57,007 nucleotides of DNA from a virus. Taxonomy: Duplodnaviria > Caudoviricetes. Made by a program: the position numbers and the translations under genes. Location of the stretch: IMG/VR virus record IMGVR_UViG_3300028599_000005, positions 1 to 57,007 of that record, one strand, 5' to 3'. The notes under the pieces are model-generated. The model ran no database searches and was not told the origin of the DNA. It worked only from the letters and a program-made list of their open reading frames with translations. Shown here piece after piece: positions 16,517 to 44,121 of this stretch (positions within the stretch are counted from its first letter, which is position 1; the number at the start of each line of letters is the position of its first letter).

Positions 16517-18064
16517 TCACCCGCCCAGCCATCCGTGGGCGCTGCCGCCCGAGGACCGGCCCGACGGTTCTTCCCTGGGCTTGAGCTTCGCGGCCCATGC
16601 ATACACGACTGCATCGCCACGATCAGGCGAGCGGCCGAGCCGCTTTATCATGCCTTCCTTGCTCTCGACATAGATTTTCGGCGGCTTGCCGGGCCTCACC
16701 TCATATGTCGGGGCGGTGAGATCGGCTTGCAACGTTGGATCGGGCGGCAAGGCGAGCCCCACCCCGTAATCCGGGTCAAGCGACTCGCGAAGCTGCCACC
16801 ACATTTCCGAGCGCTTGGTGACGAACCCGAAATTCTTGTCCCGCGTGAGGCGATTCGATCGGGTCGCTCCATTCAAACTATCGAGGCTCATCCCGGTATT
16901 CTTGAACGCCGTTTCCGCATCGGCGCCGACCCCTATTGAATCGAGGCCGACAACCGCGCCGTCGCGCAGCTTGCCCGCGGTCAAGGCGACAACGCTCGGT
17001 CCATCGGGCGTTTCCCGGCCAGGAACAACCGTCAATGTGTCAAACCACCGGTCGAAGCGCGGCGCTACTACGGTTTCGTCCCTTCCGCCGCGCGCAACGT
17101 CGACACCGACCGCCGTCATCGGCACGTCTTTGGGTTTTCCCTCGCGCCATCTCTCGTTAGCGGCGAGTATCCACGGTGTCGGGATTACCTGCCACGCGGA
17201 GTCCTCGCGCGCCGCCATGAAATTGCCATCGCGTATCGCCGACCGAATCGGCTCCGGCATGGCATCGAGCGCCGCTTGGTAGTTGGTTCTCGCCAGCGTC
17301 GGGTTGTCGCTCAGCTTCGCCGGGATGAAGGTGCGCGACATCGGGCGGTAAGCCTTGCCATCCCATTCCCGGACATCATCCGGCCCACCCGCCTCAACGT
17401 CCTTGCCGTCGGGGTCGACCAGAAACCATCGCAGTTCGCCATGTTCGGCACGGTCCGGATACATCGGGTCGAGCCAGGGCCGGAACATTCCAACAATCCA
17501 CTCACCATCAGCGCTCAGGGGCGGGTTGGAGGCCAGCACCGACCGGCACCGTATGTCAAGGTCCGCTTCGTCCCTCGGGCGTATCCAGCCCATCAGGAAC
17601 CGCACCTGCGCCTCAAGGAACTGCGTTACCTCGTCAATCCCCAGAAGGTCATGCGCCTGGCCCTGCCAATGCTGCTCGTCGTCCGGCTTCGCGGCGGCGC
17701 CGAAGTCTATCAAACGCCCATCGGTCCTCAGTTTCGGGGGCGGACTTCCGTTGAAGCCATCCCGCGTACCATTGATTGCGAGCACCCGGTCAATCATCGC
17801 ACCCAGATCGGTATATTGACGCCGCATGACCAGAGAATTCTTATGTGCCGTCAATGCCAGCCCGGCTATCAGGTCGCTCTTGCCGCCGCCGCCCTGGCCG
17901 CCATACAGCAGAATATCTGCGGCGCAGAAATACGCCTCCGTCTGCGGACCGGGATTGGGCACCCATTTTATCCCGGACTGGCGCTCCAGGACATCCTTCC
18001 TGAGCTGATCCCTGTCCGCTTCCGGCATCGCGCCAAGGCGGGCCAGAACGTCATCGAGGTTCAT
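16517..18064 (-). CDS. terL: Terminase large subunit
   Basis: Walker A GGQGGGGKS, Walker B LGIDE, ASNP, nuclease GVDVARGGRD and SPDRGDA. Confidence 0.95.
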   Translation of the reverse strand: MNLDDVLARLGAMPEADRDQLRKDVLERQSGIKWVPNPGPQTEAYFCAADILLYGGQGGGGKSDLIAGLALTAHKNSLVMRRQYTDLGAMIDRVLAINGTRDGFNGSPPPKLRTDGRLIDFGAAAKPDDEQHWQGQAHDLLGIDEVTQFLEAQVRFLMGWIRPRDEADLDIRCRSVLASNPPLSADGEWIVGMFRPWLDPMYPDRAEHGELRWFLVDPDGKDVEAGGPDDVREWDGKAYRPMSRTFIPAKLSDNPTLARTNYQAALDAMPEPIRSAIRDGNFMAAREDSAWQVIPTPWILAANERWREGKPKDVPMTAVGVDVARGGRDETVVAPRFDRWFDTLTVVPGRETPDGPSVVALTAGKLRDGAVVGLDSIGVGADAETAFKNTGMSLDSLNGATRSNRLTRDKNFGFVTKRSEMWWQLRESLDPDYGVGLALPPDPTLQADLTAPTYEVRPGKPPKIYVESKEGMIKRLGRSPDRGDAVVYAWAAKLKPREEPSGRSSGGSAHGWLGG

Positions 18065-18603
18065 TCCTTCATGACGCCCTTCGTCATCGCAAAGGCCAGC
18101 CGGCGCGCAAACTCCAAATCACTGACCTCGATCGGCTTGCCATCGGGCCCGGAATGTTCATGCTTGCTCGGGAACATACCCAGATGGCGACCGACATCAA
18201 CCAGGGCCCCGCGCTTGTCATGCAGCTTGAGGCGAATTGTTCTGCCCTTTTCCGTCACGGTCTCGCTGACCTCAGCAACCACGGCCTGCTGCTCTGGTGT
18301 CAGATCTTCCTTCGGTTTCAGCTTCACGCCGTCCGGACCCCAGTCGAAATACTCACCGGCATTAGCGAAGCCTATCAACGCCAGCTCGCGCAGAACATTG
18401 TCGACCGTGATCTTTGTCCGCTCGGAGCGTTCCACTTGTGCTTCCGCGACGGCCTCGGCTATCTGAGGTTTTCTGAGGTTGTCGTAACCTTGCTCCGACG
18501 CCGTTTTTTTGCTGTACCCAGCCCTGATTGCAGCCTGCGTCGCATTTAGATCGATCAGAAATTCTTCAACAAAGCGCGCCTGTTTAGGGGTCAGGTCCGG
18601 CAT
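18061..18603 (-). CDS. terS: Terminase small subunit
   Basis: LTPKQARFVEEFLIDLNATQAAIRAGYS. Confidence 0.95.
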   Translation of the reverse strand: MPDLTPKQARFVEEFLIDLNATQAAIRAGYSKKTASEQGYDNLRKPQIAEAVAEAQVERSERTKITVDNVLRELALIGFANAGEYFDWGPDGVKLKPKEDLTPEQQAVVAEVSETVTEKGRTIRLKLHDKRGALVDVGRHLGMFPSKHEHSGPDGKPIEVSDLEFARRLAFAMTKGVMKE

Positions 18604-18663
18604 TCATATCCTCCAGCCGCTCACACGCCAGCTTGATATACAGCGGCGCCTGTCGCGCTGCCT

Positions 18664-18846
18664 TCATGCGGTTGACGACGCCTTCGCTTCCAAGGCCTCC
18701 AGGGCCAGTTCATGTTCGTTGATCAACCGGCTCTTGCCGGCCTCGCGCGCTATGACCGTGTCACGGCCAACGCCAAGCAGTTCACTGAATTGCTCCTGGG
18801 TCAGCCCCAGCTGCTGGCGGCGCGCTCTGTAATCCTCTCGGTTCAT
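18664..18846 (-). CDS. Small XRE-HTH regulator (Aca-like), probably leaderless
   Basis: RQQLGLTQEQFSELLGVGRDTV; ATG 6 nt after the -10 box. Confidence 0.8.
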   Translation of the reverse strand: MNREDYRARRQQLGLTQEQFSELLGVGRDTVIAREAGKSRLINEHELALEALEAKASSTA

Positions 18847-18852
18847 CCCCAC

Positions 18853-18928
18853 AATATATGCCGGGATGAGAAAAGTTGCAATACCCAACATTTTATGGGT
18901 TGACTTCTTTGTCGGGTTTCCCTACATT
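18853..18928. promoter_or_regulatory. Divergent promoters with palindromic operator
   Basis: Minus TTGCAA-17-TATATT (18881-18853); plus TTGACT-17-TACATT (18900-18928); TGTCGGG-N3-CCCTACA palindrome 18910-18926. Confidence 0.7.
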
Positions 18929-19077
18929 ACAGAGACAGGCACAGACCTACCGCCGCAAACAGTTCCGGGCAAGGAGTCGAACCAGCCGGATATAGCGCGA
19001 AGGCCGTGACGGTGCCAGCCAACGGAAGCAAGTCATGCTCCTGAATGAGTCCCGTAACCCTCACTGGAGTGAATACC

Positions 19078-19491
19078 ATGACCGCTGAAAACAAAACTAT
19101 CAATCAGTTCATTGCGGAAAACAAGCTGACTATGGAAGCCAAACCCGTCAGCCACAACCCGAACATGGACAGCGAAACACCCATGGACCACTGGCAATGC
19201 GAAATTGCCAAAGACGGCGGCGAACCATGGCTTACCTTTTTCTCAATGGGTATTGGCCACAAAAGCAAATCGCCAGAACTTGCCGACGTGTTGGATTGTT
19301 TGGCAAGCGACGCCGCCGGATTCGATAACGCCCAAGACTTTGAAGATTGGGCCAGCGAATACGGATACAGCGAAGATTCGCGCAAAGCTGAAGCCATTTA
19401 CAACACAATTGACCGGCAGGCCGACGAACTTAAACAATTCCTTGGCGACGATGCCTATAGCGACATGCTTTGGAATACCGAACGCGAATAA
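19078..19491 (+). CDS. Acidic hypothetical protein
   Basis: GGAG RBS; DVLDCLASD...FEDWASEYGYSEDSRKA. Confidence 0.8.
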   Translation: MTAENKTINQFIAENKLTMEAKPVSHNPNMDSETPMDHWQCEIAKDGGEPWLTFFSMGIGHKSKSPELADVLDCLASDAAGFDNAQDFEDWASEYGYSEDSRKAEAIYNTIDRQADELKQFLGDDAYSDMLWNTERE

Positions 19492-19569
19492 CACCCTAGC
19501 CCTGCGGGGCTTTTTCAGGAGCATGACAGAGACTCCCTGAATGTGTCCACCTAACCAGGAGTTATGATT

Positions 19570-19752
19570 ATGCGTAGATGGATTAAACTTAGCAGCGAAT
19601 CGCAATCAGCGGCGCAATGGGCCGCCAAACATGGATACACTGGCAATGCTGGCGATCCGTTGCCCTCAATGCTTTCCGATACAGCATATGCTGAAATCGC
19701 CAATAATCAGCGATGGTTTAAACTTGCTGTACACATGAGCAAATCATTCTAA
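19570..19752 (+). CDS. Small hypothetical protein
   Basis: AGGAG RBS; enclosed by IR pair 2. Confidence 0.65.
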   Translation: MRRWIKLSSESQSAAQWAAKHGYTGNAGDPLPSMLSDTAYAEIANNQRWFKLAVHMSKSF

Positions 19753-19833
19753 CAACCTTGGCCATACGTGGCCATTTTCAGGGAGTCTCGGCAGAGCCTT
19801 CAATGAGTCCCGTAACTTATTGGAGTGCAAACG

Positions 19834-20049
19834 ATGAAGCTTTTAGACGGCAACCCTATAAACCGCCACCTCTACAAGGCTGGCGACCGCGTGAAAATCC
19901 TCAACAGCAACATGCGCGGCGAAACAATCGTCGAGGGCCTTGCTACGGTTCGCAGCCTTACCGAGATTGACCACACCTACATGGTCGAATTTGATAGCGA
20001 ACCCGGCGAAACATACGAGCGGCTGGCCGGCCCTGGACAACAAATTTAA
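19834..20049 (+). CDS. Small SH3/KOW-like hypothetical protein
   Basis: GGAG RBS; YKAGDRVKI...YMVEFD. Confidence 0.65.
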   Translation: MKLLDGNPINRHLYKAGDRVKILNSNMRGETIVEGLATVRSLTEIDHTYMVEFDSEPGETYERLAGPGQQI

Positions 20050-20131
20050 CACCCTAGCCCCTCGGGGCTTTTTGAAGGCTCTGCAATGCAAAAGCCTCTT
20101 GTCGGCCCGCAAGCTGACAGGAGTATGAAAT

Positions 20132-20311
20132 ATGATTTACGAACCGAAGTTTAGACGCTCTTACCCATTTGGTAAAGAACGCTTCCAGGGACTTGCCGTT
20201 ACATACAAGCCAGACGGCTGCAAAATAACCGTTGTCGCAGACCAAACGCGCGGGAATAAAGCCGACGCAATGACGGACGCACAGGCACTTGCCGATGGAC
20301 TTAACACCTAA
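20132..20311 (+). CDS. 59-aa hypothetical protein (not in ORF track)
   Basis: AGGAG RBS; MIYEPKFRR...LADGLNT*; enclosed by IR pair 4. Confidence 0.6.
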   Translation: MIYEPKFRRSYPFGKERFQGLAVTYKPDGCKITVVADQTRGNKADAMTDAQALADGLNT

Positions 20312-20382
20312 CCCACCCTTGCGGGCTAACCAGAGGCTTTTGCAATCACGCTCTCTTTGGTTTGCAACCAAGGGAGAATGTT

Positions 20383-20637
20383 ATGAAACCTAGCCAGCTA
20401 ATTTCCGAATACGACGCGGTGAAACAAGCCAACCCAGGATCGATCGTATTTGTTCGCTGCGGCGACTTCTATGAGACCCTGCGCGACGATGCCTTGACTG
20501 CTTCAAGAGTGATCGGGATAACCCTGACCACCCGCGACGGGATACCAATGACCGGCATACCCGCACACAGCATAGGTCGTTACGCGGTACTTCTTATAGA
20601 GAACGGCCACACATTCCTACTTCACGATCCACAATAA
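20383..20637 (+). CDS. Stand-alone MutS domain I-like protein
   Basis: EYDAVKQANPGSIVFVRCGDFYE...IGITLT...PMTGIPAH. Confidence 0.8.
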   Translation: MKPSQLISEYDAVKQANPGSIVFVRCGDFYETLRDDALTASRVIGITLTTRDGIPMTGIPAHSIGRYAVLLIENGHTFLLHDPQ

Positions 20638-20657
20638 CAACCCTTGTCGCCCGTCAG

Positions 20658-21128
20658 GGCGGCAAACCCCGCTACAAAGGCAAGAACAAGCGCGGGCGTG
20701 GCGCGGCAAACAAGACCATCGTATTCGGCATGGCGGAACGCGCGGGACCATTGCGCGCCGGTATCGTGCCCAACGTCCAAGCAAAAACCCTACAGCCCAT
20801 TATCATGCGAAATGTCCAGCGCGGAAGTGTCATCTCGACCGACGAACTCGGCTCATACAAGGGTCTGCGCAAATGTGGTTTCCGGCATCACAGTGTCAAC
20901 CATAGCGCCAAACAGTATGTCTCCGGCGAGCATCATACGAACACGCTTGAAGGCTACTGGAGCCGCCTGAAACTCAGCATCCGGGGAACGCATGTCCACG
21001 CTTCCCCAAGGCATCTATGGAAATACGTTTCCGAGTTCTCATTCCGCTACAACATGCGGAAAACGCCGGAGGCTATGTTTGATCGTCTGATTTCTTCCCT
21101 CGCACTGCCGCGCCTAGCAGACGATTGA
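20658..21128 (+). mobile_element. IS1595-family (ISXO2-like DDE) transposase, 5'-truncated
   Basis: GGKPR...RGRG..KTIVFGM, STDE, VNHS, HTNTLEGYWS, YVSEFSFRYN; N-terminal zinc finger and DETY missing. Confidence 0.8.
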
Positions 21129-21276
21129 AAGCCTCTTTGTGCCGTGGGTTCTCGTCCATGGTGGGAAGTTCCGGTGATTCGTCAACGTCCCGACTCTGAC
21201 GGAAACGGATAATCCCCTCGTCAGGAACTGTCATATCCATCGATTCCTCAAACTTCTGAACCAGTGTCTTTTTCAT
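21073..21276 (-). CDS. Small hypothetical protein convergent on the transposase
   Basis: MKKTLVQKF... overlapping the transposase 3' end. Confidence 0.4.
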   Translation of the reverse strand: MKKTLVQKFEESMDMTVPDEGIIRFRQSRDVDESPELPTMDENPRHKEAFNRLLGAAVRGKKSDDQT

Positions 21277-21920
21277 CCTGCTTTTCCGTTCGACCAATGT
21301 TAAAACGAGAAAAGAATCTCGGGTTAAGTTGCGGATCAAAATAGTGTTTCCGCTTTATCCAGACAAAACCGTCACCCTTTGAAATAACCGCCACATCTAT
21401 TGGGCCGCCCACCGATTCTTCATCAGTAGTAACTCTTTCTTTCAATGACTCAATTGAGACCAACGTTTCAGCGAGTTCCGCGAGCTCATCCACAGGCAAA
21501 CTGCCAACAACGCGCCGCAACGGTTGCGAATGGGTCTGGATCATTTTGTCCAACAGAGTGTTACTAAATTCATCATGTGCCGCCTCTTTTTCGGCCTCCA
21601 AATCTACCCCTCCAGGGAAACCGTGCGTAGTCTCCAACTCCACCACAAACTTGTCTAAAGCTTTATAAAACGCCTTTTCTGTCTCCACCAACGCATGTCC
21701 GCTGATACCGTAAATAAAGGTCCTCACCATTTGCGTTTTCGCGAGTGGAATTATTTGAGAAACATCTTTCTGTGTTACCTTCCATTCCTTTTCTTCATTG
21801 TAAATCGCCCGACCTAATGCAATACCGTACGAAGTAAAATTCTTGACCATCGGAAAATAATCACGCGCGCCGTATCCCGCAAAAACAATTACGGCAAAGC
21901 CAGCGCCACTCAATGAGTTG
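21248..21920 (-). pseudogene. Lower-GC IS passenger gene, probably 5'-truncated
   Basis: C-terminal VGGPIDVAVISKGDGFVWIKRKHYF looks genuine; composition changes near 21920 and there is no good start; boundary approximate. Confidence 0.5.
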
Positions 21921-25355: not shown

Positions 25356-25681
25356 TCCGCCGCACCCCGAATGTAACGATGCTCGACTGGAACCCCGGCC
25401 TTTTTGGCTGCCTTGATTCCATCTTTCATGCCATCCGATATGCCGTTATCCGCATAAACAGCGGTTAATTCCGCGACCCTGCACCAAGCCAGCCCGGCAT
25501 TGATTCCCCACCAGCGCTCTTCCTTTATTTCATCGCGCAGAATGCCCGGTTGCGTGTAAAGCAGGTGACTCGCAATTGGCGCTTCACCGCGTTCAAGCGA
25601 ATCACGCACGCAAGCGCGGCCATATTCTGTGTTTTGCTCGATATTTCCGGCATAAGGGCTTTCAATGATGACGAGCTTCAT
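25352..25681 (-). CDS. Nucleoside deoxyribosyltransferase-like small protein
   Basis: IESPYAG...GEAPIASHLLY...GISDGM. Confidence 0.6.
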   Translation of the reverse strand: MKLVIIESPYAGNIEQNTEYGRACVRDSLERGEAPIASHLLYTQPGILRDEIKEERWWGINAGLAWCRVAELTAVYADNGISDGMKDGIKAAKKAGVPVEHRYIRGAAE

Positions 25682-27660
25682 TCCGCCGCCTCCGCGAATA
25701 GTGGCCCATGCGATTTCGGTGGATCCCGGTGTCGCTGTTTGACCGATGCCGAATGACGGCCCTCGCCGGCCAGCCAGGCCAGGCGCTCGCGGATATCGGC
25801 CTGGTATTCCGGCTCGGCCTCGATCAGCACGGCTCGGAAGCCCTCGGCGATGGCGGCGATGCCGGTGCTGCCCGACCCGGCAAACGGGTCGAGGATCAGC
25901 CCGCCCGGCGGGGTGACGAGCCGCGCCAGCCAGCGCATCAACGCCACCGGCTTGACCGTGGGGTGTTTCGAACCGAACCGGTCTTCCGGGCCAGCCTTGG
26001 CGGAATAGAAGAAGCGGGCGGCGGTGCCGGAATCGCCAATCCTGAAACCCTTTTCGCCGACGCCAATGCCGTTGAAACCAATTCCAGTTGTGCCGTCATA
26101 AGCGCCGCCCGGCGTATGTGGTCGGACGTGACCCGCGCCGTGCATTCCCATCCGTTCTGATTCCGCCGCGAACGCCGCCTCGACTTCCTCGCTGCCGTCA
26201 TGGCAGACATTGGCGGGCCAGCGGCCTTCGTCGCCGCCGCGCACATTCGCCCGATCATCCCGCCCATAGATGGTTCCATTTACACCTGATTGCCGAGCCG
26301 TACTTTCATCCGTCGCCACCCGGCACCCGTCCACATTCACCGCGCCCGTCCCGTGGCGCAGGACGTTGGCGGCGATGGTTTTCTCGGACAGCGGCTTGCG
26401 GGCGAGGACGATCAGTTCGAAGCTAGGCTTTACGCCCTCGGCCCGGCAATCTTCTGCATCCTGCAATAAAGCAGGCCCGGTCGCAGAAAGTGTGAGGGTG
26501 TGCTGCAACAATGACAGCGAGGCGTTGAAATGGCTTTCCGCAGTGGAAGCATTTGCATGGAACCCACCGGTCAGGCTGCTTGCCTTGATGATGGAGTCGG
26601 CTGTGATCCGCGACAGTGAGAAGTTTAAGGTTTTCCAGTCGATTGTCGTTCCTGATGCCGTTTCGATGATGGACGTGTTCGCTGGAATCAAGGCTTCTTC
26701 CAATGTGCGCCGCCATGACGACACGATGCTCAAGCTGATAGTCGTCGCCAACTCGAATTGCGACATATCCATCCCTGCGCTCAAACCGGCCCGTGTATTG
26801 GTGGCGTCGTCGGCAGTCCATTGAGCAATAGCGGACGCCTCGGCGAACCCGCTTTGGCTTGACGTTGAATTCTGTACCGCAGCTTTCACAAATGACAGCA
26901 ACCATAACCGGGCCTCCAATCGAATTAAGCTTGATAGGATTATACCCTGTTCGTGCTTCAAAGGGAACGGCTTTACAGCCAATACAACTGATTCCCAGGC
27001 GGGCTTAAGAGCCGTGCCCCAGCCCTGCCAGCGTTCGGCCTCGGGCGTGGCGGGAGCGGTGATATTAGCTTTTCGCTGCGCGGCATCATCCTCATGCATC
27101 CAAGGGCGGTCCCAACCAGCATTCTGCGATGCAAGCCCTTTTTCAAACCGAGCGGCTTTCACTTCGTCAAATCCAACAACCTCCCGCTCCGCGCCCGCCG
27201 CCTTGTCGATGCCCTTGCTCACGTCATGTGATTTCGGGAATCCTTGGCCAAACAGCCAAGCAACCGTATCGCGTATCTCAAACCCGGCATCCTCGATTGC
27301 ACATGCCTGCCGGTGCCAACCGCGCGTGCCGCCGAAGGCCAGCAGGTGCCCGCCGGGTTTCAGGACGGCCATGGCCAGCGCCCAGGTTTCGGGGTCGAAA
27401 GCGATGTCGCCGCCGTCCCACTGCTTGCCCATGAAGCCAGTAGCAGCGCGTGCATGTGGCGATTTGCCCTGATTGAAGGTCTTGCGAAGTTCAGCGTTCT
27501 TGTAAACGTCGTCCGCTGTCGCATTCCCGAAGCGTTTGACGATGCTGGTGAGGTGGTAGGGCGGGTCGGTGACGATGGAGTCGACTTGGACTCCAAGATG
27601 CGCCATCAATCGCATGGCGCGGCGGCAATCGCCGGGAATCAGGCGGACACGGTTTCTCAT
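25678..27660 (-). CDS. DNA N6-adenine/N4-cytosine methyltransferase (beta class) with 192-codon insert
   Basis: [29 protein letters not shown]. Confidence 0.9.
26423..26905 (-). CDS. HNH endonuclease with Cys zinc fingers, nested in another frame of the MTase
   Basis: EHRVVM...[16 protein letters not shown]; CxxC/CSxxC at both ends; GGAGG RBS 7 nt upstream; TATAAT at 26944-26939. Confidence 0.88.
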
Positions 27661-31024: not shown

Positions 31025-31070
31025 GGTGTGGGTGGACTATCCTTAAGGGGGAGATCATGCATACCAAAAA

Positions 31071-31274
31071 TTATCCGCGGCTGGCGGTCTCCAGCAACTC
31101 ATCCACGGACAAATCAACGTCGCGCTCGCGGGCCAGAATCAAAAGCCGCGAATGCCACTTGCCGGGCACGCCTCCAGCGGACCAGTTGCGGATTGTCGAG
31201 GGCGGGATTTCAAGCGTTGCGGCGAGTGCATCGACGCCGCCGAAACGCGCCAGAATTTCTTGTGGGGTTGACAT
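31071..31274 (-). CDS. cro: Cro-like repressor
   Basis: FGGVDALAATLEIPPSTIRNW..GGVP. Confidence 0.8.
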   Translation of the reverse strand: MSTPQEILARFGGVDALAATLEIPPSTIRNWSAGGVPGKWHSRLLILARERDVDLSVDELLETASRG

Positions 31275-31287
31275 AAAACAAGAACTA

Positions 31288-31323
31288 TCCAATTATTGGA
31301 CTAATGTCAATCCAAAAAACGGA
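31288..31323. promoter_or_regulatory. OR-type operators and cro promoter
   Basis: TCCAATTATTGGA and TCCAAAAAACGGA; TTGACA on minus. Confidence 0.65.
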
Positions 31324-31344
31324 TGCAAAAATAAGGACAAACGT

Positions 31345-31710
31345 ATGCCGCCGCAGGGATACAGTGTGTCCATGGCACGGACACGGAAGGTTCCGCCACC
31401 TGTTGTTAAAAAGCAGGGCCGGAAGAAGCACTCACCCCAGGACGACCTGTTTAAGCGACAGGTCGGAACGCGGCTGCGCGAGATACGCAACCACTGGAAA
31501 TACACCCAGAAAGAGTTCAGCCAAATCCTCGGAATCCCGCACGGGACGTACAACAAATACGAAATCGGCGAGTCATTCCCCCACCCCGCCACGATTGCAC
31601 AATTGATCGTGTGGGGGGTGAACATGAACTACCTCCTGGCCGGTTTCGGCGACCGTTTCATTCGCCATCACGTCATGCGGCCCGGCCAGATCGAATACCC
31701 GATCAACTGA
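31345..31710 (+). CDS. CI-like XRE repressor lacking a peptidase domain
   Basis: RLREIR..YTQKEFSQILGI..TYNKYEIG; divergent from cro. Confidence 0.8.
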   Translation: MPPQGYSVSMARTRKVPPPVVKKQGRKKHSPQDDLFKRQVGTRLREIRNHWKYTQKEFSQILGIPHGTYNKYEIGESFPHPATIAQLIVWGVNMNYLLAGFGDRFIRHHVMRPGQIEYPIN

Positions 31711-34769: not shown

Positions 34770-34851
34770 CCGACCAGGAACGGGCCATCCGGGACGAACT
34801 GGAAATCCACGGCGTTCTGGTGACGGGCAAATTGAACGAATGGAGATTGAA

Positions 34852-35622
34852 ATGACCGAAGTTCAAACCACGAAACCAGCCGGCGCGCTGGTGGAAGCGG
34901 AATCCGCGGCATTGCCCGCAGTCCAGGAGCAAGGGTCGGTGGCCCTCATGCGCATGATCGAGCGGGCAATTACGGACCCCAACTTCGACGTTGCCAAAAT
35001 GGAGCAGTTACTCGCCGTCAAGGAACGGTGGGAAGCCAACGAGGCCCGTAAGGCGTTCGTGCGGGCGCTCGCCGCGTTCAAGGCCGACCCGCCCAAGGTG
35101 AAGAAGAACCGGCACGTCAAGTTTGCGCAGACGGAATACGACCACGCCACGCTCGATCATATCTGTGACGTGGTGGGCAAGGCGCTGGCGGCGCACGGGC
35201 TGTCCCATACATGGAAGGTTGTGCAGCATGAAAACGCGGCTGTCGAGGTTACATGCGTGTTGACCCATGAACTCGGACATTCTGAGCTGGTGACGATGCG
35301 CGGCATGCCGGACAGTTCGGGCAGCAAGAACCTCATCCAGCAGATCGGCTCTACCACCACGTATTTGCAGCGGTACACGCTCCTGTCGGCAACCGGGCTC
35401 GCGGCGGCGGGGCAGGATAATGATGGCGGAGCGCCAGCAGACCTAATATCCGCCGAACAGAAGAAAACGCTGGTTGCGCTGATGAAGGAAGTCGAGGCCG
35501 ACACCAATAAATTCCTGAAATATCTCGGGGTCGAAACCATCGACGAACTGCCGGCCAACTCTTTCGGGTCGGCGAAGACCGCGCTTGAGGCCAAGCGGAG
35601 TGCGAACAATGCAGATATATGA
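34852..35622 (+). CDS. erf: ERF family ssDNA-annealing recombinase
   Basis: HGLS, LTHELGH, QQIGSTTTYLQRYTL...QDNDG. Confidence 0.88.
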   Translation: MTEVQTTKPAGALVEAESAALPAVQEQGSVALMRMIERAITDPNFDVAKMEQLLAVKERWEANEARKAFVRALAAFKADPPKVKKNRHVKFAQTEYDHATLDHICDVVGKALAAHGLSHTWKVVQHENAAVEVTCVLTHELGHSELVTMRGMPDSSGSKNLIQQIGSTTTYLQRYTLLSATGLAAAGQDNDGGAPADLISAEQKKTLVALMKEVEADTNKFLKYLGVETIDELPANSFGSAKTALEAKRSANNADI

Positions 35623-41897: not shown

Positions 41898-42173
41898 ATG
41901 GTGGGAACGCGCCCCTACACCGTCGCCACTCTGGCGGAGCGCTGGCAGTGTTCCGAGCAACACATTCGCGATCTGATCAACAGGGGAGAACTGCCTTGCT
42001 TCCGCGCGGGCCGTCTGATTAGGATAACGGCTGCGGAGGTGGGGCACTTCGAATGCGGCTCAAATGGTATCGTGGAAGCTGGTACGGCGTCGATACGGTC
42101 GGCGGACGAACATGCCGCGTTGCCCTCAGAACAAAAGATCGTGGTACTGCCGAGCAACGATTGGCGGACCTGA
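41898..42173 (+). CDS. xis: Excisionase (HTH_17)
   Basis: YTVATLAERWQCSEQHIRDLINRGELPCFRAGRLIRI. Confidence 0.85.
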   Translation: MVGTRPYTVATLAERWQCSEQHIRDLINRGELPCFRAGRLIRITAAEVGHFECGSNGIVEAGTASIRSADEHAALPSEQKIVVLPSNDWRT

Positions 42174-43000
42174 ACCGCCCGCCGGTCAATGAGTCCGTCG
42201 CCGAAATATACCACGCCTATTTGGAAGACCTGACAGCCAGAGGAAAGCGCGCCGATAGAGGCGAAACAGCATGGAAAGCCCTGAAAGACACCTTTGGATC
42301 GCTGCGGCCAGATCAGGTTACAAAGACCTTGTGCCGGTCCTACACGGCACAACGGCGCCTGCAACGCCGGGCAGACGGGACAATAGGCAAAGAACTCGAC
42401 TGCTTACGGGCGGCCCTGCGATGGCACGACAGGCACACCAAGGCCAGCTTCGAAATGCCGCCCCGGCCGCCACCAAGGGACCGGCGGCTTACCAGGGGGG
42501 AATACAAACGTCTCCGGCTGGCCGCGAAGAAATCCGGCCTGCATATTTACGTTTTTGTGGTGCTGGGATTGGCCACGGCGGGGAGAAGGCAGGCCATATT
42601 GGATCTGACGTGGGACCGGGTGGATTTTCACGGTGGGCTCATCAGATTGGCCGATGGTTCGCGGGGGAAGGGAAGGGCCACGGTTCCCATGAGCAGGCAC
42701 GCAAGGCGGACTCTCGCACTGGCGCGGAGACATTCAGTCACATCGCATGTAATAGAATATGCCGGAAGGCCGGTGGGATCGGTGAAGAAAGGCTTCGCTT
42801 CGGCCTGCAACCGCGCGGGACTGAACGATGTTTCGCCCCACGTTCTCCGGCATACCGCCGCCGCGTGGATGGCCGAAAAGGGCATTCCGATGACAGAGAT
42901 TGCGCAATTTCTCGGGCATTCGGATTCGCGAATTACGGAACGTGTATATGCCCGATTTTCTCCCGATTATCTGCGGGGCGCGCTGTCGGCGCTGGAGTGA
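42053..43000 (+). CDS. int: Tyrosine recombinase/integrase
   Basis: TAGRR, K, HVLRHT, LGH, VYAR catalytic residues. Confidence 0.93.
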   Translation: MRLKWYRGSWYGVDTVGGRTCRVALRTKDRGTAEQRLADLNRPPVNESVAEIYHAYLEDLTARGKRADRGETAWKALKDTFGSLRPDQVTKTLCRSYTAQRRLQRRADGTIGKELDCLRAALRWHDRHTKASFEMPPRPPPRDRRLTRGEYKRLRLAAKKSGLHIYVFVVLGLATAGRRQAILDLTWDRVDFHGGLIRLADGSRGKGRATVPMSRHARRTLALARRHSVTSHVIEYAGRPVGSVKKGFASACNRAGLNDVSPHVLRHTAAAWMAEKGIPMTEIAQFLGHSDSRITERVYARFSPDYLRGALSALE

Positions 43001-43494
43001 CGACCCTTGCGGCCAACCTGTGTGCCGATACCGCGATGCCCTGTACAGATACTGCGAATAATGGTTCTGCCAACGTTAAATTCGTTTGCTATCGACTGAT
43101 GCGTACAACCTTCGGAGCGCAACTGCAAAATGCGGGCAATGTCGCCGTCACTAAATTTCGAGAGCGGATGTTCGTTGCCGTATGTACGACGGGAGAAATC
43201 CTGTGTGTTTTTTTCGTGCGTAGTAATGCGAAGATTTTCCCGACGATTATCAAGCGTGTTGCCATTGACGTGATCTACCACCACACCTTGCGTAGTCACA
43301 ACGTTGGCAATCAGCCGGTGCATCTGGACCCACGTAATTGGCTGTCCCAAAAAAATACCTCTTGCCGGGCGCGTGCGGGCATATTGATATTTTTCTCCGA
43401 CGTACGAAATGTGCCAATTCGTACATGCCAAGAAAGGCAGAATATCGTCATCAACCAAGACTTCGCCGCCTGTTATCTGAAATCTGCTAGCCAT
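42967..43494 (-). CDS. HNH endonuclease with C-terminal HTH
   Basis: MHRLI...VDHVNGNTLDNRRENLR; GNEHPLSK...IANEFNV. Confidence 0.85.
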   Translation of the reverse strand: MASRFQITGGEVLVDDDILPFLACTNWHISYVGEKYQYARTRPARGIFLGQPITWVQMHRLIANVVTTQGVVVDHVNGNTLDNRRENLRITTHEKNTQDFSRRTYGNEHPLSKFSDGDIARILQLRSEGCTHQSIANEFNVGRTIIRSICTGHRGIGTQVGRKGRHSSADSAPRR

Positions 43495-43652
43495 AATTTA
43501 TTTATAGCGCAATTGAACCGGGGCCGCAAGACAGGGCGCTTTCGTTCCGATGGTCCAAATGGGCCAAAGTTTCATGGTTTGTTCAGGGTCAAACAGAGCC
43601 GAAGTGCTTGTGTTTACTACAGTATATCGGTACATTGGCGAGTGGGAATTGT

Positions 43653-43698
43653 CTTCACACGGCGGGGGGCACAGGTTCAAATCCTGTCGCGCCCACCA
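43653..43698 (+). other. attP core: 3' half of tRNA-Val(CAC)
   Basis: CTTCACACGGCGG...CAGGTTCAAATCCTGTCGCGCCCACCA; 5' half absent; downstream of int. Confidence 0.85.
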
Positions 43699-43764
43699 TT
43701 TTCCTCAATAACTTACAGCGTCGGCAGACAGTTCCCTTACGTTCATTTGAACCAAGGGGATATC

Positions 43765-44121
43765 ATGACCAACGACGAAATCGACCGATTCTGGGGTTAC
43801 GTCAATAAAAGCGGCGATTGCTGGCTGTGGACGGCGGGCTGCTTCAAGCGCGGCTATGGCGCCTTTGCCTATGACGGTAAACGCCCTGGATATGCTCACC
43901 GGTTTTCGTATGAGCTACACTTTGGCCCCATCCCTGAGGGCAAGGTGATAATGCACAAATGCGACAACAGGAAATGTGTAAACCCCGCTCACCTGAAAGC
44001 TGGTACGCAGCGCGACAACATACACGATGCAATGGCAAAAAATCGCTGGATGACCAAGGCGCGCGAAAACTATCTCAGCGCCCAACCTGGCTCAATGGCG
44101 CACCGCTATCAGAAACGATGA
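43765..44121 (+). CDS. HNH endonuclease
   Basis: RFW..V..CWLW..GYG..AHRFSY...HKCDNRKCVNPAHL. Confidence 0.88.
   Translation: MTNDEIDRFWGYVNKSGDCWLWTAGCFKRGYGAFAYDGKRPGYAHRFSYELHFGPIPEGKVIMHKCDNRKCVNPAHLKAGTQRDNIHDAMAKNRWMTKARENYLSAQPGSMAHRYQKR

Follow-up and report, generated by a model that had tools for sequence, protein, structure and literature searches.

In the DNA stretch analysed here (57,007 nucleotides; the window), four successive small genes are each enclosed by their own pair of long inverted repeats. This arrangement is tentatively read as an array of single-gene cassettes, a quite possible interpretation in which matching helices would form in the RNA and probably be cut by RNase III, and in which the junctions between the units would double as recombination joints. 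The phage is temperate, comes from sediment and has a P22-like portal, and the four-cassette array lies inside an accessory operon of low GC content. The features of the region are as follows.

18664-18891, minus strand: divergent gene for an Xre-type HTH regulator, 75 aa (Pfam HTH_3, 1.3e-07; PHROG transcriptional regulator families)
18900-18928, plus strand: sigma-70-like promoter candidate TTGACT-17-TACATT (consensus scan, 9/12 matches)
19032-19054, plus strand: unit 1 left arm (inverted-repeat search, folds, pair comparison across units)
19078-19491, plus strand: cargo gene 1, 137 aa, phrog_4273 family of undefined function (PHROG 1.5e-23); GGAG at 19066
19505-19527, plus strand: unit 1 right arm (inverted repeat, folds)
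19529-19553, plus strand: unit 2 left arm (inverted repeat, folds, pair comparison across units)
19570-19752, plus strand: cargo gene 2, 60 aa; GGAG at 19558
19765-19789, plus strand: unit 2 right arm (inverted repeat, pair comparison across units)
19791-19812, plus strand: unit 3 left arm (inverted repeat; unchanged beside different cargo in X3 record 16)
19834-20049, plus strand: cargo gene 3, 71 aa; GGAG at 19822
20063-20084, plus strand: unit 3 right arm (inverted repeat, pair comparison, related contigs)
20087-20113, plus strand: unit 4 left arm (inverted repeat, pair comparison, related contigs)
20132-20311, plus strand: cargo gene 4, 59 aa; GGAG at 20120
20318-20344, plus strand: unit 4 right arm (inverted repeat, pair comparison across units)
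20351-20664, plus strand: region of the fifth operon gene (20383-20637), encoding MutS domain I only (Pfam MutS_I, 1.6e-16)
20660-21128, plus strand: 5'-truncated remnant of an IS1595-family transposase (Pfam DDE_Tnp_IS1595, 9.9e-32)

Architecture of the array

The sequence-only reading had described four arm pairs, each around exactly one ribosome-binding site and ORF and spaced 1-2 nt apart, and this description is accurate. The units span 19032-19527, 19529-19789, 19791-20084 and 20087-20344 and are separated by linkers of 1, 1 and 2 nt. As inverted repeats, the two arms of a pair match at 87% over 23 nt in unit 1, 84% over 25 nt in unit 2, 86% over 22 nt in unit 3 and 89% over 27 nt in unit 4, with perfect outer cores of 14, 13, 13 and 13 nt, respectively. 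Each helix consists of a perfect outer part of 13-14 bp, a pyrimidine-pyrimidine mismatch and 8-12 further pairs, giving 22-27 bp in total; the sequence-only reading had put the pairing at roughly 22-25 bp, with G-U pairs and a mismatch or internal loop.

All four units share a common layout. The left arm is followed by 16-23 nt containing GGAG(U) and an 8-nt spacer, the AUG, a single ORF and a UAA stop codon; next come a C-rich motif, a small hairpin that may or may not carry a U-run and, 6-13 nt beyond the stop codon, the right arm. The placement of the arms and the 8-nt GGAG-AUG spacers are compatible with translation. In unit 1, the inner half of the right arm doubles as the 3' half of the small hairpin, which is followed by U5.

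The divergent regulator gene lies upstream of the array, and the promoter candidate at 18900-18928, which is a consensus match, would drive it. This element lies within the interval 18699-19028, which is replaced by 853 different letters in the X2 relative. The consensus scan yielded four promoter-like sites in 18500-21300, none of which is located inside a junction. Downstream, the folds place the Shine-Dalgarno (SD) sequence of the fifth gene inside a local hairpin at the 5' end and show a 9-bp hairpin at the 3' end; an enclosing stem is absent around 20383-20637, where the helix score of 21 equals background. The array is bounded by the transposase remnant, which matches the 153-position profile from 43 to 153 only. 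An ERF-family annealing protein and a tyrosine integrase are present in the phage, the integrase being the sole PF00589 match (42485-42955, 22 kb from the array); a serine recombinase was not found in the phage, and neither an RNase III nor a dsRBD gene of its own is detectable by sequence.

Cargo gene 1 has 44 homologues in the metagenome scan and cargo gene 3 has two, at 71% and 62% identity, while no Pfam or PHROG family was found for cargo genes 2, 3 and 4. The structure model of the gene 1 product has a pLDDT of 91.6, and no solved structure matches it at E <= 0.001. The few dsRBD matches, at E 0.2-0.7, were disregarded as too weak.

Folding of the stems and support for selection on their structure

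The window contains 15 perfect repeats of at least 12 nt, compared to 7.8 +/- 2.8 in 100 shuffles. A single repeat of this kind is not rare in the window; the chain of units is rare. Among repeats of at least 13 nt, the window has three abutting links, whereas 200 dinucleotide shuffles gave none; with repeats of at least 12 nt, a single link appeared in 1 of 200 shuffles. By itself, the 13-nt inner motif does not reach significance: it matches three times in the window, and at least three matches were found in 14 of 100 shuffles.

In unit-by-unit minimum-energy folds, each unit is closed by its own arms, and the minimum-energy fold of the whole 1.8-kb transcript (18935-20700) retains all four stems, with 24, 22, 21 and 25 own-arm pairs in units 1-4. 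The outer stems have pair probabilities of 0.96-1.00. Duplex energies range from -33.7 to -43.9 kcal/mol for an arm and its own partner and from -10.2 to -25.6 kcal/mol for other partners. Since the outer 13 bp differ among the units, the four helices are partner-specific.

The outer 13 positions are Watson-Crick pairs in 52 of 52 cells across the four units, with 2-4 pair types per position; the comparison is one of four paralogous units within one array and involves no orthologous alignment. The outermost arm positions are the most variable part. The three listed natural variants inside stems, all from the X2 comparison, preserve or improve pairing: at 19547, C>T replaces a C-G pair by U-G; at 19767, one C of a C-C mismatch is lost through a 1-nt deletion; and at 20331, C>A converts a U-C mismatch to a U-A pair. 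Selection on structure, which had been proposed because the stems differ in sequence and yet stay complementary, is supported by the compensatory variation among the units and by these three variants. As a test of strand sense, G-U pairs (six) were counted against A-C pairs (one) in the stems, and in units 1 and 3 the RNA duplex of the plus strand is more stable by 6-9 kcal/mol than that of the minus strand. The minus-strand duplex is as stable as the plus-strand duplex in units 2 and 4, however, so the strand evidence is modest.

Conserved junctions and exchanged cargo in related contigs

Relatives of the array were compared in assembled contigs from four runs; the conservation described here rests on one other sediment study, and one related contig has a depth of only 2.5. 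One contig (X2 record 6) keeps units 1, 2, 4 and 5, with 3 and 6 other letters, and has 256 different letters in place of 19790-20087. A second contig (X3 record 16) keeps 19750-19813, 20047-20125 and 20306-20373 with 0, 1 and 0 differences, whereas ORF3 and ORF4 are replaced by 348 and 465 other letters. The exchanges are thus marked by the joints 19789>20088, 19813>20047 and 20125>20306, with 256, 348 and 465 other letters in between. Junction modules, consisting of a right arm and the next left arm, stay nearly unchanged while genes or whole cassettes are swapped; the check suggested earlier, a search for the same arms around different cargo genes in other phages, has found them in these contigs.

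The robust breakpoints lie at most 3 nt from the outer ends of the arms (19029 versus 19032, 19789, and 20088 versus 20087; sides 87 and 255), and where only the cargo is swapped, the breaks lie at the borders of the conserved inner motifs (19813, 20047). Strand-changing (inversion) joints were found in none of the four runs, although contigs can miss rare forms. The joint 19789>20366, which fuses the unit 2 right arm to the gene 5 leader, has a side of 22 and is a hint only; the same applies to further joints with sides below 30 (19572>19749, 19816>20047, 19817>20049 and 20379>20635).

Searches for the layout in other genomes

A blastn search of 18850-20700 against 50,697 phage records gave zero matches, and IMG/VR scans with the unit 1, 3 and 5 proteins and the small terminase subunit returned relatives of at most 52% identity, or none. 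Two exact DNA patterns of the junctions had no match in IMG/VR, and a degenerate junction pattern matched nine loci, none of which contains the chain. The one IMG/VR match to a left-arm pattern was rejected as a chance match in AT-rich coding sequence.

Relatives of gene 1 are encoded at three loci in genome contigs and 44 in metagenome contigs. Thirty-five loci with usable flanks were scored; 11 were excluded because their flanks were short or incomplete, and L011, L024 and L034 were excluded as duplicates of L002/L001. An enclosing helix above the mismatched-flank control was found at 0 of the 35 loci: the window scores 53, the next best locus 33 and the control at most 40. That next best locus (L049), lying below the control maximum, was inspected and discarded as a stem-bearing locus. 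RNAduplex applied to flanks of 90 nt could not separate the loci, and a chain of units was present at 0 of the 21 loci L001-L021. Conservation of the arms is therefore seen in the X2 and X3 contigs but at none of the 35 loci with relatives of gene 1. None of the runs recorded as RNA contains the stretch. The literature searched has no description of a phage operon in which successive stems each enclose a gene.

Comparison with known systems

The closest parallel is provided by the stems around 16S and 23S rRNA in rrn operons, where successive long-range helices also flank the products of one polycistronic transcript. The cutting of pre-rRNA stems by RNase III is established (PMC6582327), and the helix length in the array (22-27 bp) falls inside the range that is cut. 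As in rRNA operons, every product is flanked by a helix of at least about 20 bp, with compensatory change among the four paralogous units. Unlike the rrn stems, those of the array enclose mRNAs that are translated (59-137 codons) and belong to an accessory operon of a phage; its four units abut with linkers of 1-2 nt, and each arm is specific to its partner. The enclosed products are not stable non-coding RNAs: each unit has an SD sequence and an ORF, coding is supported by the homologues of genes 1 (44) and 3 (two), and Rfam has 0 matches in the window.

RNase III sites in the early mRNA of T7 are local intercistronic hairpins. Similar to T7, a polycistronic phage transcript would be divided into mRNAs of one gene each, with a hairpin kept at the 3' end; in contrast to the T7 sites, the pairing in the array spans the gene, and the outer 13 nt of adjacent arms are non-complementary. 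Local folds of the junctions are unremarkable (-18.8 to -26.8 kcal/mol, z -0.66 to -2.07), and local hairpins of the T7 type were rejected because a stable one is not present between the cistrons.

The PeSL (promoter-early stem-loop) of T4-type phages is described as a promoter plus terminator, present as direct repeats (Arbiol et al. 2010, PMC2839356; Comeau et al. 2014, PMC4122927). In these phages, small conserved intergenic modules flank non-essential ORFs of a plastic region and act as exchange points, so that relatives differ in the ORFs swapped in; in the array, ORF exchange boundaries also lie at the modules. However, no sigma-70-like promoter accompanies each module of the array, which has no promoter-like site in any junction and is marked instead by an inverted-repeat pair around each gene.

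Fold-back closure occurs in the hok mRNA, and RNase III is involved in the pairing of icaR. In icaR mRNA of Staphylococcus aureus, the 5' and 3' UTRs pair (PMC3868564). The array shares with icaR and hok the pairing of the two ends of one mRNA across hundreds of nucleotides; it differs in that its arms spare the SD sequence and four units are chained in one operon, whereas in icaR and hok a single gene is repressed by masking of its ribosome-binding site. A small hydrophobic toxin of the hok type is not encoded, the cargo translations being hydrophilic and 59-137 aa long.

The array also resembles integron attC arrays in having promoterless single-gene cassettes behind one upstream promoter and cargo that varies among relatives. 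In integrons, however, both arms lie in one intergenic site with shared cores and IntI adjoins the attC array. Here one arm lies on either side of the ORF, each unit has outer 13 nt of its own, and no integrase adjoins the array, the PF00589 match being 22 kb away; integron attC sites were rejected on these grounds. A MITE or IS-like element was rejected because the outermost positions are the most variable, the linkers are 1-2 nt long and flanking direct repeats are missing.

Proposed mechanism and alternative explanations

In the proposed mechanism, every left arm of the polycistronic plus-strand RNA would pair with its own right arm in a helix of 22-27 bp, turning every cistron into a closed domain whose ribosome-binding site and stop codon lie just outside the helix. 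Near-perfect double-stranded RNA of this length is an expected RNase III substrate in most bacteria, and for this reason host RNase III is proposed to cut the helices as it does the stems of 16S and 23S pre-rRNA. Cleavage would free monocistronic mRNAs whose ends remain paired or refold into a 3' hairpin, thereby insulating the folding, stability and translation of each gene from its neighbours. Of the functions put forward in the sequence-only reading, RNase III processing in the style of pre-rRNA appears to be the most plausible mechanism. Since the junctions are kept while genes and cassettes are exchanged, the modules also serve as joints at which genes are swapped in modular fashion, most likely through homologous recombination in the conserved inner motifs.

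It is also conceivable, though unlikely, that the RNA stems form and stay uncut, serving as structural insulators or closed loops in which cistrons fold independently and ends are shielded from decay, both 5'-end-dependent and 3'-exonucleolytic. The stop codon would then be held beside its own ribosome-binding site; the post-stop TAACA(C/A)CC motif would transiently pair with GGAGU, and terminating ribosomes could reopen the site. Consistent with this, the arms lie just beyond the initiation and termination footprints, and the best ensemble partner of the GG/GU of the SD motif is, in each of the four units, the AC..CC located at the stop codon or next to it (probability 0.17-0.90), although this pairing comprises 4 bp with a bulged A and has a probability of at most 0.35 in units 1 and 4. 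An effect of distant anti-RBS sequences on bacterial expression is reported in a 2025 preprint (PMC12697547). The strongly paired helices themselves, as RNase III substrates in most bacteria, argue against stems that stay uncut. A relay of terminators and antiterminators, in which each hairpin and U-run terminates transcription unless the 3' half is captured by its own left arm, is very improbable. The underlying observation of a hairpin and T-run after TAACA(C/A)CC stands for units 1-3, where pairing of the inner right arm and folding of the small hairpin exclude each other. These hairpins, however, consist of 4-6 bp at -8.4 to -8.8 kcal/mol, are followed by 4-5 U and are below the threshold of the terminator scan, which made 0 calls in the junctions, and the unit 4 hairpin has -3.5 kcal/mol and no U-run. 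The U-run comes before the strong outer 13 nt, so at the time of the decision competition could come only from the weak inner pairing of 8-10 bp, with G-U and a mismatch, at a distance of 250-480 nt.

A further alternative, which seems quite improbable, is that the repeats are mainly DNA signals, namely the termini of mobile single-gene cassettes used by a recombinase or as single-stranded DNA hairpins, with RNA pairing as a by-product. A DNA-level role would fit equally well with breakpoints at the arms' outer ends, the unit 2 right arm is joined directly to the gene 5 leader in one case (with the side of only 22), and the phage has the ERF-family protein and the tyrosine integrase. However, the outermost bases, normally the part recognised by a transposase or recombinase, vary most; the units have 1-2 nt linkers only and no flanking direct repeats; a serine recombinase is absent and the sole integrase is 22 kb off; the four runs contain no inversion joint, a form that contigs can miss when rare; and G-U exceeds A-C by 6 to 1. 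In addition, the cargo-only swaps break at 19813 and 20047, as homologous recombination predicts. The idea of gene-exchange cassettes suggested earlier gained unexpected support from the DNA-level swaps at the arms, which recombination in conserved junctions explains more simply than single-stranded DNA hairpins would. More doubtful than the RNase III cassettes set out above, a combined reading would regard the locus as an integron-like phage cassette array in which each promoterless gene has partner-specific terminal repeats. In the RNA, these would close the cistron by a helix for RNase III to cut, leaving monocistronic messages with paired ends; in the DNA, they would form the ends of the units exchanged between phages. 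New accessory genes would then plug into a ready-made scaffold for expression and processing.

Implications

If the stems work as proposed, single-gene cassettes closed by matching helices would be a natural way to make the genes of an operon behave independently of their neighbours. Synthetic biologists have solved the same problem with engineered RNase III or Csy4 sites; the natural version would use partner-specific helices around whole messages. The four arm pairs also form a ready-made compensatory series for experiments. If true, the logic of pre-rRNA processing would be extended to mRNAs and, together with the swapping of cargo, phages would hold an expression scaffold fixed while exchanging their accessory genes.

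Genomic setting of the array

The window, 57,007 bases long, is a whole virus record that CheckV rates as 83% complete. Structural and packaging genes on the - strand form a module that fills its left third. The phage is considered temperate because genes for a tyrosine integrase, an ERF-family annealing protein and a DNA methylase are present. A low-GC island (GC 0.49-0.55 at 19-23 kb vs. about 0.6 elsewhere in the window) lies just past the small terminase gene and holds the array; the local order is an Xre-type HTH gene, a promoter-like site, five small + strand genes and an IS1595 remnant.

Left third of the window, - strand: P22-like portal (match 7.6e-202)
Left third of the window, - strand: large terminase subunit
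18061-18603, - strand: small terminase subunit (4e-39)
18664-18891, - strand: divergent Xre-type HTH gene
18900-18928, + strand: promoter-like site TTGACT-17-TACATT, upstream of the five small genes
20383-20637, + strand: gene 5, a stand-alone MutS domain I of 84 amino acids (Pfam 1.6e-16; NCBIfam MutS N-terminus 5.5e-19)
25678-27660: DNA methylase
31057-31710: HTH repressor-like ORF (HTH_3 at residues 140-182)
34840-35622: ERF-family annealing protein
42485-42955: tyrosine integrase

The IS1595-family transposase gene (20660-21128) starts directly past gene 5's 3' hairpin and is 5'-truncated (profile positions 43-153 of 153); the element appears to have been cut by the array or by a deletion. 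Related contigs stop at this remnant. Elsewhere in the window, the long + strand ORF that has the integrase match (42053-43000) is overlapped in another frame by a second long + strand ORF (42271-44121), whose HNH match covers residues 541-583 only; the HNH gene itself probably starts downstream of the integrase. The longest perfect inverted repeat of the window (18 nt, 31306-31323/31789-31806) lies around the HTH repressor-like gene. Both copies contain TTGAC and adjoin a similar AT-rich CTATCCAAT motif; they resemble divergent promoter/operator modules in mirror image that would belong to the main immunity region and are distinct from the daisy chain.

Anatomy of the array

The sequence-only reading described a daisy chain of four genes, each enclosed by its own stem, and a repeat search recovered all four inverted-repeat pairs (units 1-4: 19032-19527, 19529-19789, 19791-20084 and 20087-20344). 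The arms of 23, 25, 22 and 27 nt are 84-89% complementary, with perfect outer cores of 14, 13, 13 and 13 nt, and successive units lie 1, 1 and 2 nt apart, in agreement with that reading. Each unit indeed encloses a single ORF (ORF1-4) preceded by GGAG and an 8-nt spacer, and all four stop codons are TAA followed by a C-rich motif. The left arm ends 16-23 nt before the AUG and the right arm starts 6-13 nt past the stop; judged by established footprint sizes, the arm edges would roughly match the edges of initiating and terminating ribosomes. Lone perfect inverted repeats of at least 12 nt are not unusual in the window (15 vs. 7.8 +/- 2.8 in shuffles). The chaining, in contrast, is non-random: repeats of at least 13 nt form three abutting links in the window and none in 200 dinucleotide shuffles, and at a threshold of at least 12 nt a single link arose in one of the 200.

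Gene 5, downstream of the array, is built differently, with a local hairpin over the SD and a 9-bp 3' hairpin; folds and helix scoring revealed no enclosing helix around it. Judged by its domain match, a lone mismatch-binding MutS domain I among the accessory genes of a phage could disturb mismatch repair in the host. IMG/VR yielded no close relative of gene 5. A further promoter-like site with an extended -10 (TGGCCA-17-TAGAAT, 9/12) lies on the - strand at 19746-19774, inside the unit 2/3 junction. It could drive antisense RNA into gene 2 or may have arisen by chance; the region contains four promoter-like sites vs. 1.9 +/- 1.4 expected.

Stem structure and compensatory variation

In an alignment of the four units that counts positions inward from the outer end, Watson-Crick pairs fill all 52 cells of positions 1-13, with two to four pair types per position; this compensatory variation bears out the claim that the stems differ in sequence but stay complementary. 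Every unit then has a pyrimidine-pyrimidine mismatch at position 14 or 15, and 8-12 more pairs after it. The inner parts of the arms are paralogous among units (direct repeats), whereas the outer parts are unique to each. The arms are specific to their own partner, with duplex energies of -33.7 to -43.9 kcal/mol vs. -10.2 to -25.6 kcal/mol with the arm of another unit. Each unit folded alone is closed by its own arms, and the minimum-energy fold of the putative transcript 18935-20700 retains all four helices. These dominate thermodynamically, with outer-stem pair probabilities of 0.96-1.00; in comparison, the junctions (right arm plus next left arm) form weak local folds (z -0.66 to -2.07). 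Non-Watson-Crick pairs comprise six G-U and one A-C, and in units 1 and 3 the + strand RNA duplex is more stable than that of the - strand by 6-9 kcal/mol, the two being equal in units 2 and 4; together, these values modestly favour sense-strand RNA.

In the ensemble, the likeliest partner of the GG and GU of the SD is the AC..CC motif at, just before or just after the stop (probability 0.17-0.90). This weak pairing offers a role for the TAACA(C/A)CC motif. In the small-gene run of a distant relative (locus L001, 3700-4440), stops are followed by TAACCCCTAC or TAACGCCTAAC and then by a purine-rich SD; this context resembles the TAAC..CC context of the window, and enclosing stems are absent there.

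Exchange of cargo genes in natural relatives

The stretch is represented in sequencing run X1, probably the source sample, and in two runs from a different sediment study; of its words, X2 contains 0.56 and X3 0.17. In the contig comparison four joints were robust, having 64-255 letters on their sides; the relatives are assembled contigs from this single other study, and one has low depth. Record 6 of X2 (6,625 nt, depth 11.2) matches units 1 and 2 (19029-19789; 3 other letters, 1 gap) and unit 4 with gene 5 (20088-20664; 6 other letters), and 256 other letters replace 19790-20087, i.e., all of unit 3 including both arms. Upstream, 853 other letters replace the regulator and promoter region (18699-19028), and the sequences match again from 3 nt ahead of left arm 1. 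Three junction modules persist in record 16 of X3 (1,342 nt, depth 2.5): right arm 2 with left arm 3 (19750-19813, no differences), right arm 3 with left arm 4 and the SD (20047-20125, one difference) and right arm 4 with the gene 5 leader (20306-20373, no differences). ORF3 and ORF4 are replaced by 348 and 465 other letters, characterised by length. Thus, the junctions are retained during cargo exchange and the same arm pairs surround different cargo, a pattern that the sequence-only reading had suggested looking for. All three stem variants listed keep pairing (19547, C-G to U-G; 19767, C of the C-C mismatch deleted; 20331, U-C to U-A), which has a chance of about 1% under a simple model, estimated post hoc. 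Weaker joints (sides 20-36) suggest further arrangements, e.g., right arm 2 directly onto a gene 5-like leader.

Outside these contigs, no enclosing stems were seen in the loci compared. Gene 1 is a member of phrog_4273 (1.5e-23) with relatives in 2 viral, 3 genome and 44 metagenome loci. Helices without gaps that join the 100 nt upstream to the 100 nt downstream of the gene reached best scores of 15-33 in the 35 loci with usable flanks vs. 53 in the window; 1,260 control pairings, in which the two flanks came from different loci, gave a mean of 20.4 (SD 3.6, maximum 40). The runner-up, L049, proved on inspection not to be an enclosing stem. The stems therefore belong to the scaffold of the operon and not to the cargo gene family. 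No chain of abutting stems was present in 21 loci examined, and four DNA-pattern scans of IMG/VR returned no related junctions or arms.

The gene 1 protein model (pLDDT 91.6, pTM 0.84) predicts an alpha-beta-beta-beta-alpha arrangement in the N-terminal half and a helical bundle after it. At E <= 0.001 the model matches nine uncharacterised phage proteins, including ones of Xylella phage Salvo, an Acinetobacter phage and a Providencia phage, and no solved structure. A few dsRBD chains matched only at E 0.2-0.7, too weak to call.

Possible mechanisms

The helices would form on a polycistronic RNA starting near 18935 and be cut by host RNase III; cleavage near the conserved mismatch would release monocistronic mRNAs whose short ends stay paired or whose 3' hairpin refolds. 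RNase III cleaves helices some two turns long and frees the 16S and 23S precursors from analogous stems (PMC6582327). Sequence searches of the phage found no RNase III or dsRBD gene. The main rival to processing is that the stems are not cleaved and act as insulators or close the mRNA into a loop. It was also proposed that the small hairpins after the genes terminate transcription unless the left arm pairs, in a relay of antiterminators. Units 1-3 do have such hairpins, of 4-6 bp and -8.4 to -8.8 kcal/mol with 4-5 U after them; each hairpin and the pairing of the inner right arm exclude each other. However, a consensus scan called no terminator or promoter in any junction, the U-run is absent from unit 4, and the strong outer 13 nt of the right arm are transcribed after the U-run, so that they could not act at the moment of termination. 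The relay is therefore unlikely, and the hairpins would fit better as 3' stabilisers able to re-form after cleavage. The 3' hairpins of T7 early mRNAs act as stabilisers after cleavage.

The arms may instead be termini of DNA-level cassettes, since breakpoints coincide with arm ends. However, variability is greatest in the outermost bases of the arms, no recombinase gene lies next to the array, the compared contigs showed no inversion joints, and cargo-only swaps have their breakpoints where the conserved inner motifs end, as expected of homologous recombination. Such recombination at the inner motifs would account for cargo exchange, and the phage's own ERF protein may promote it.

Comparison with known systems

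The array lacks the defining features of T7-type local hairpins, integron attC sites, MITE-like elements and hok-type closed mRNAs. Long-range 5'-3' pairing is known in single mRNAs such as icaR (PMC3868564), and a preprint reports a cis-encoded RNase III substrate inside a bicistronic transcript (bioRxiv 10.64898/2026.09.18.752551). The literature searched held no account of a phage operon with chained, partner-specific stems that each enclose a gene. The modular shuffling at the junctions is similar to that of PeSL, but the array junctions lack the promoter that PeSL have (PMC2839356, PMC4122927). The stems would follow the same logic as those of pre-rRNA processing, applied to mRNAs, and the layout of the array joins such stems with PeSL-like shuffling.
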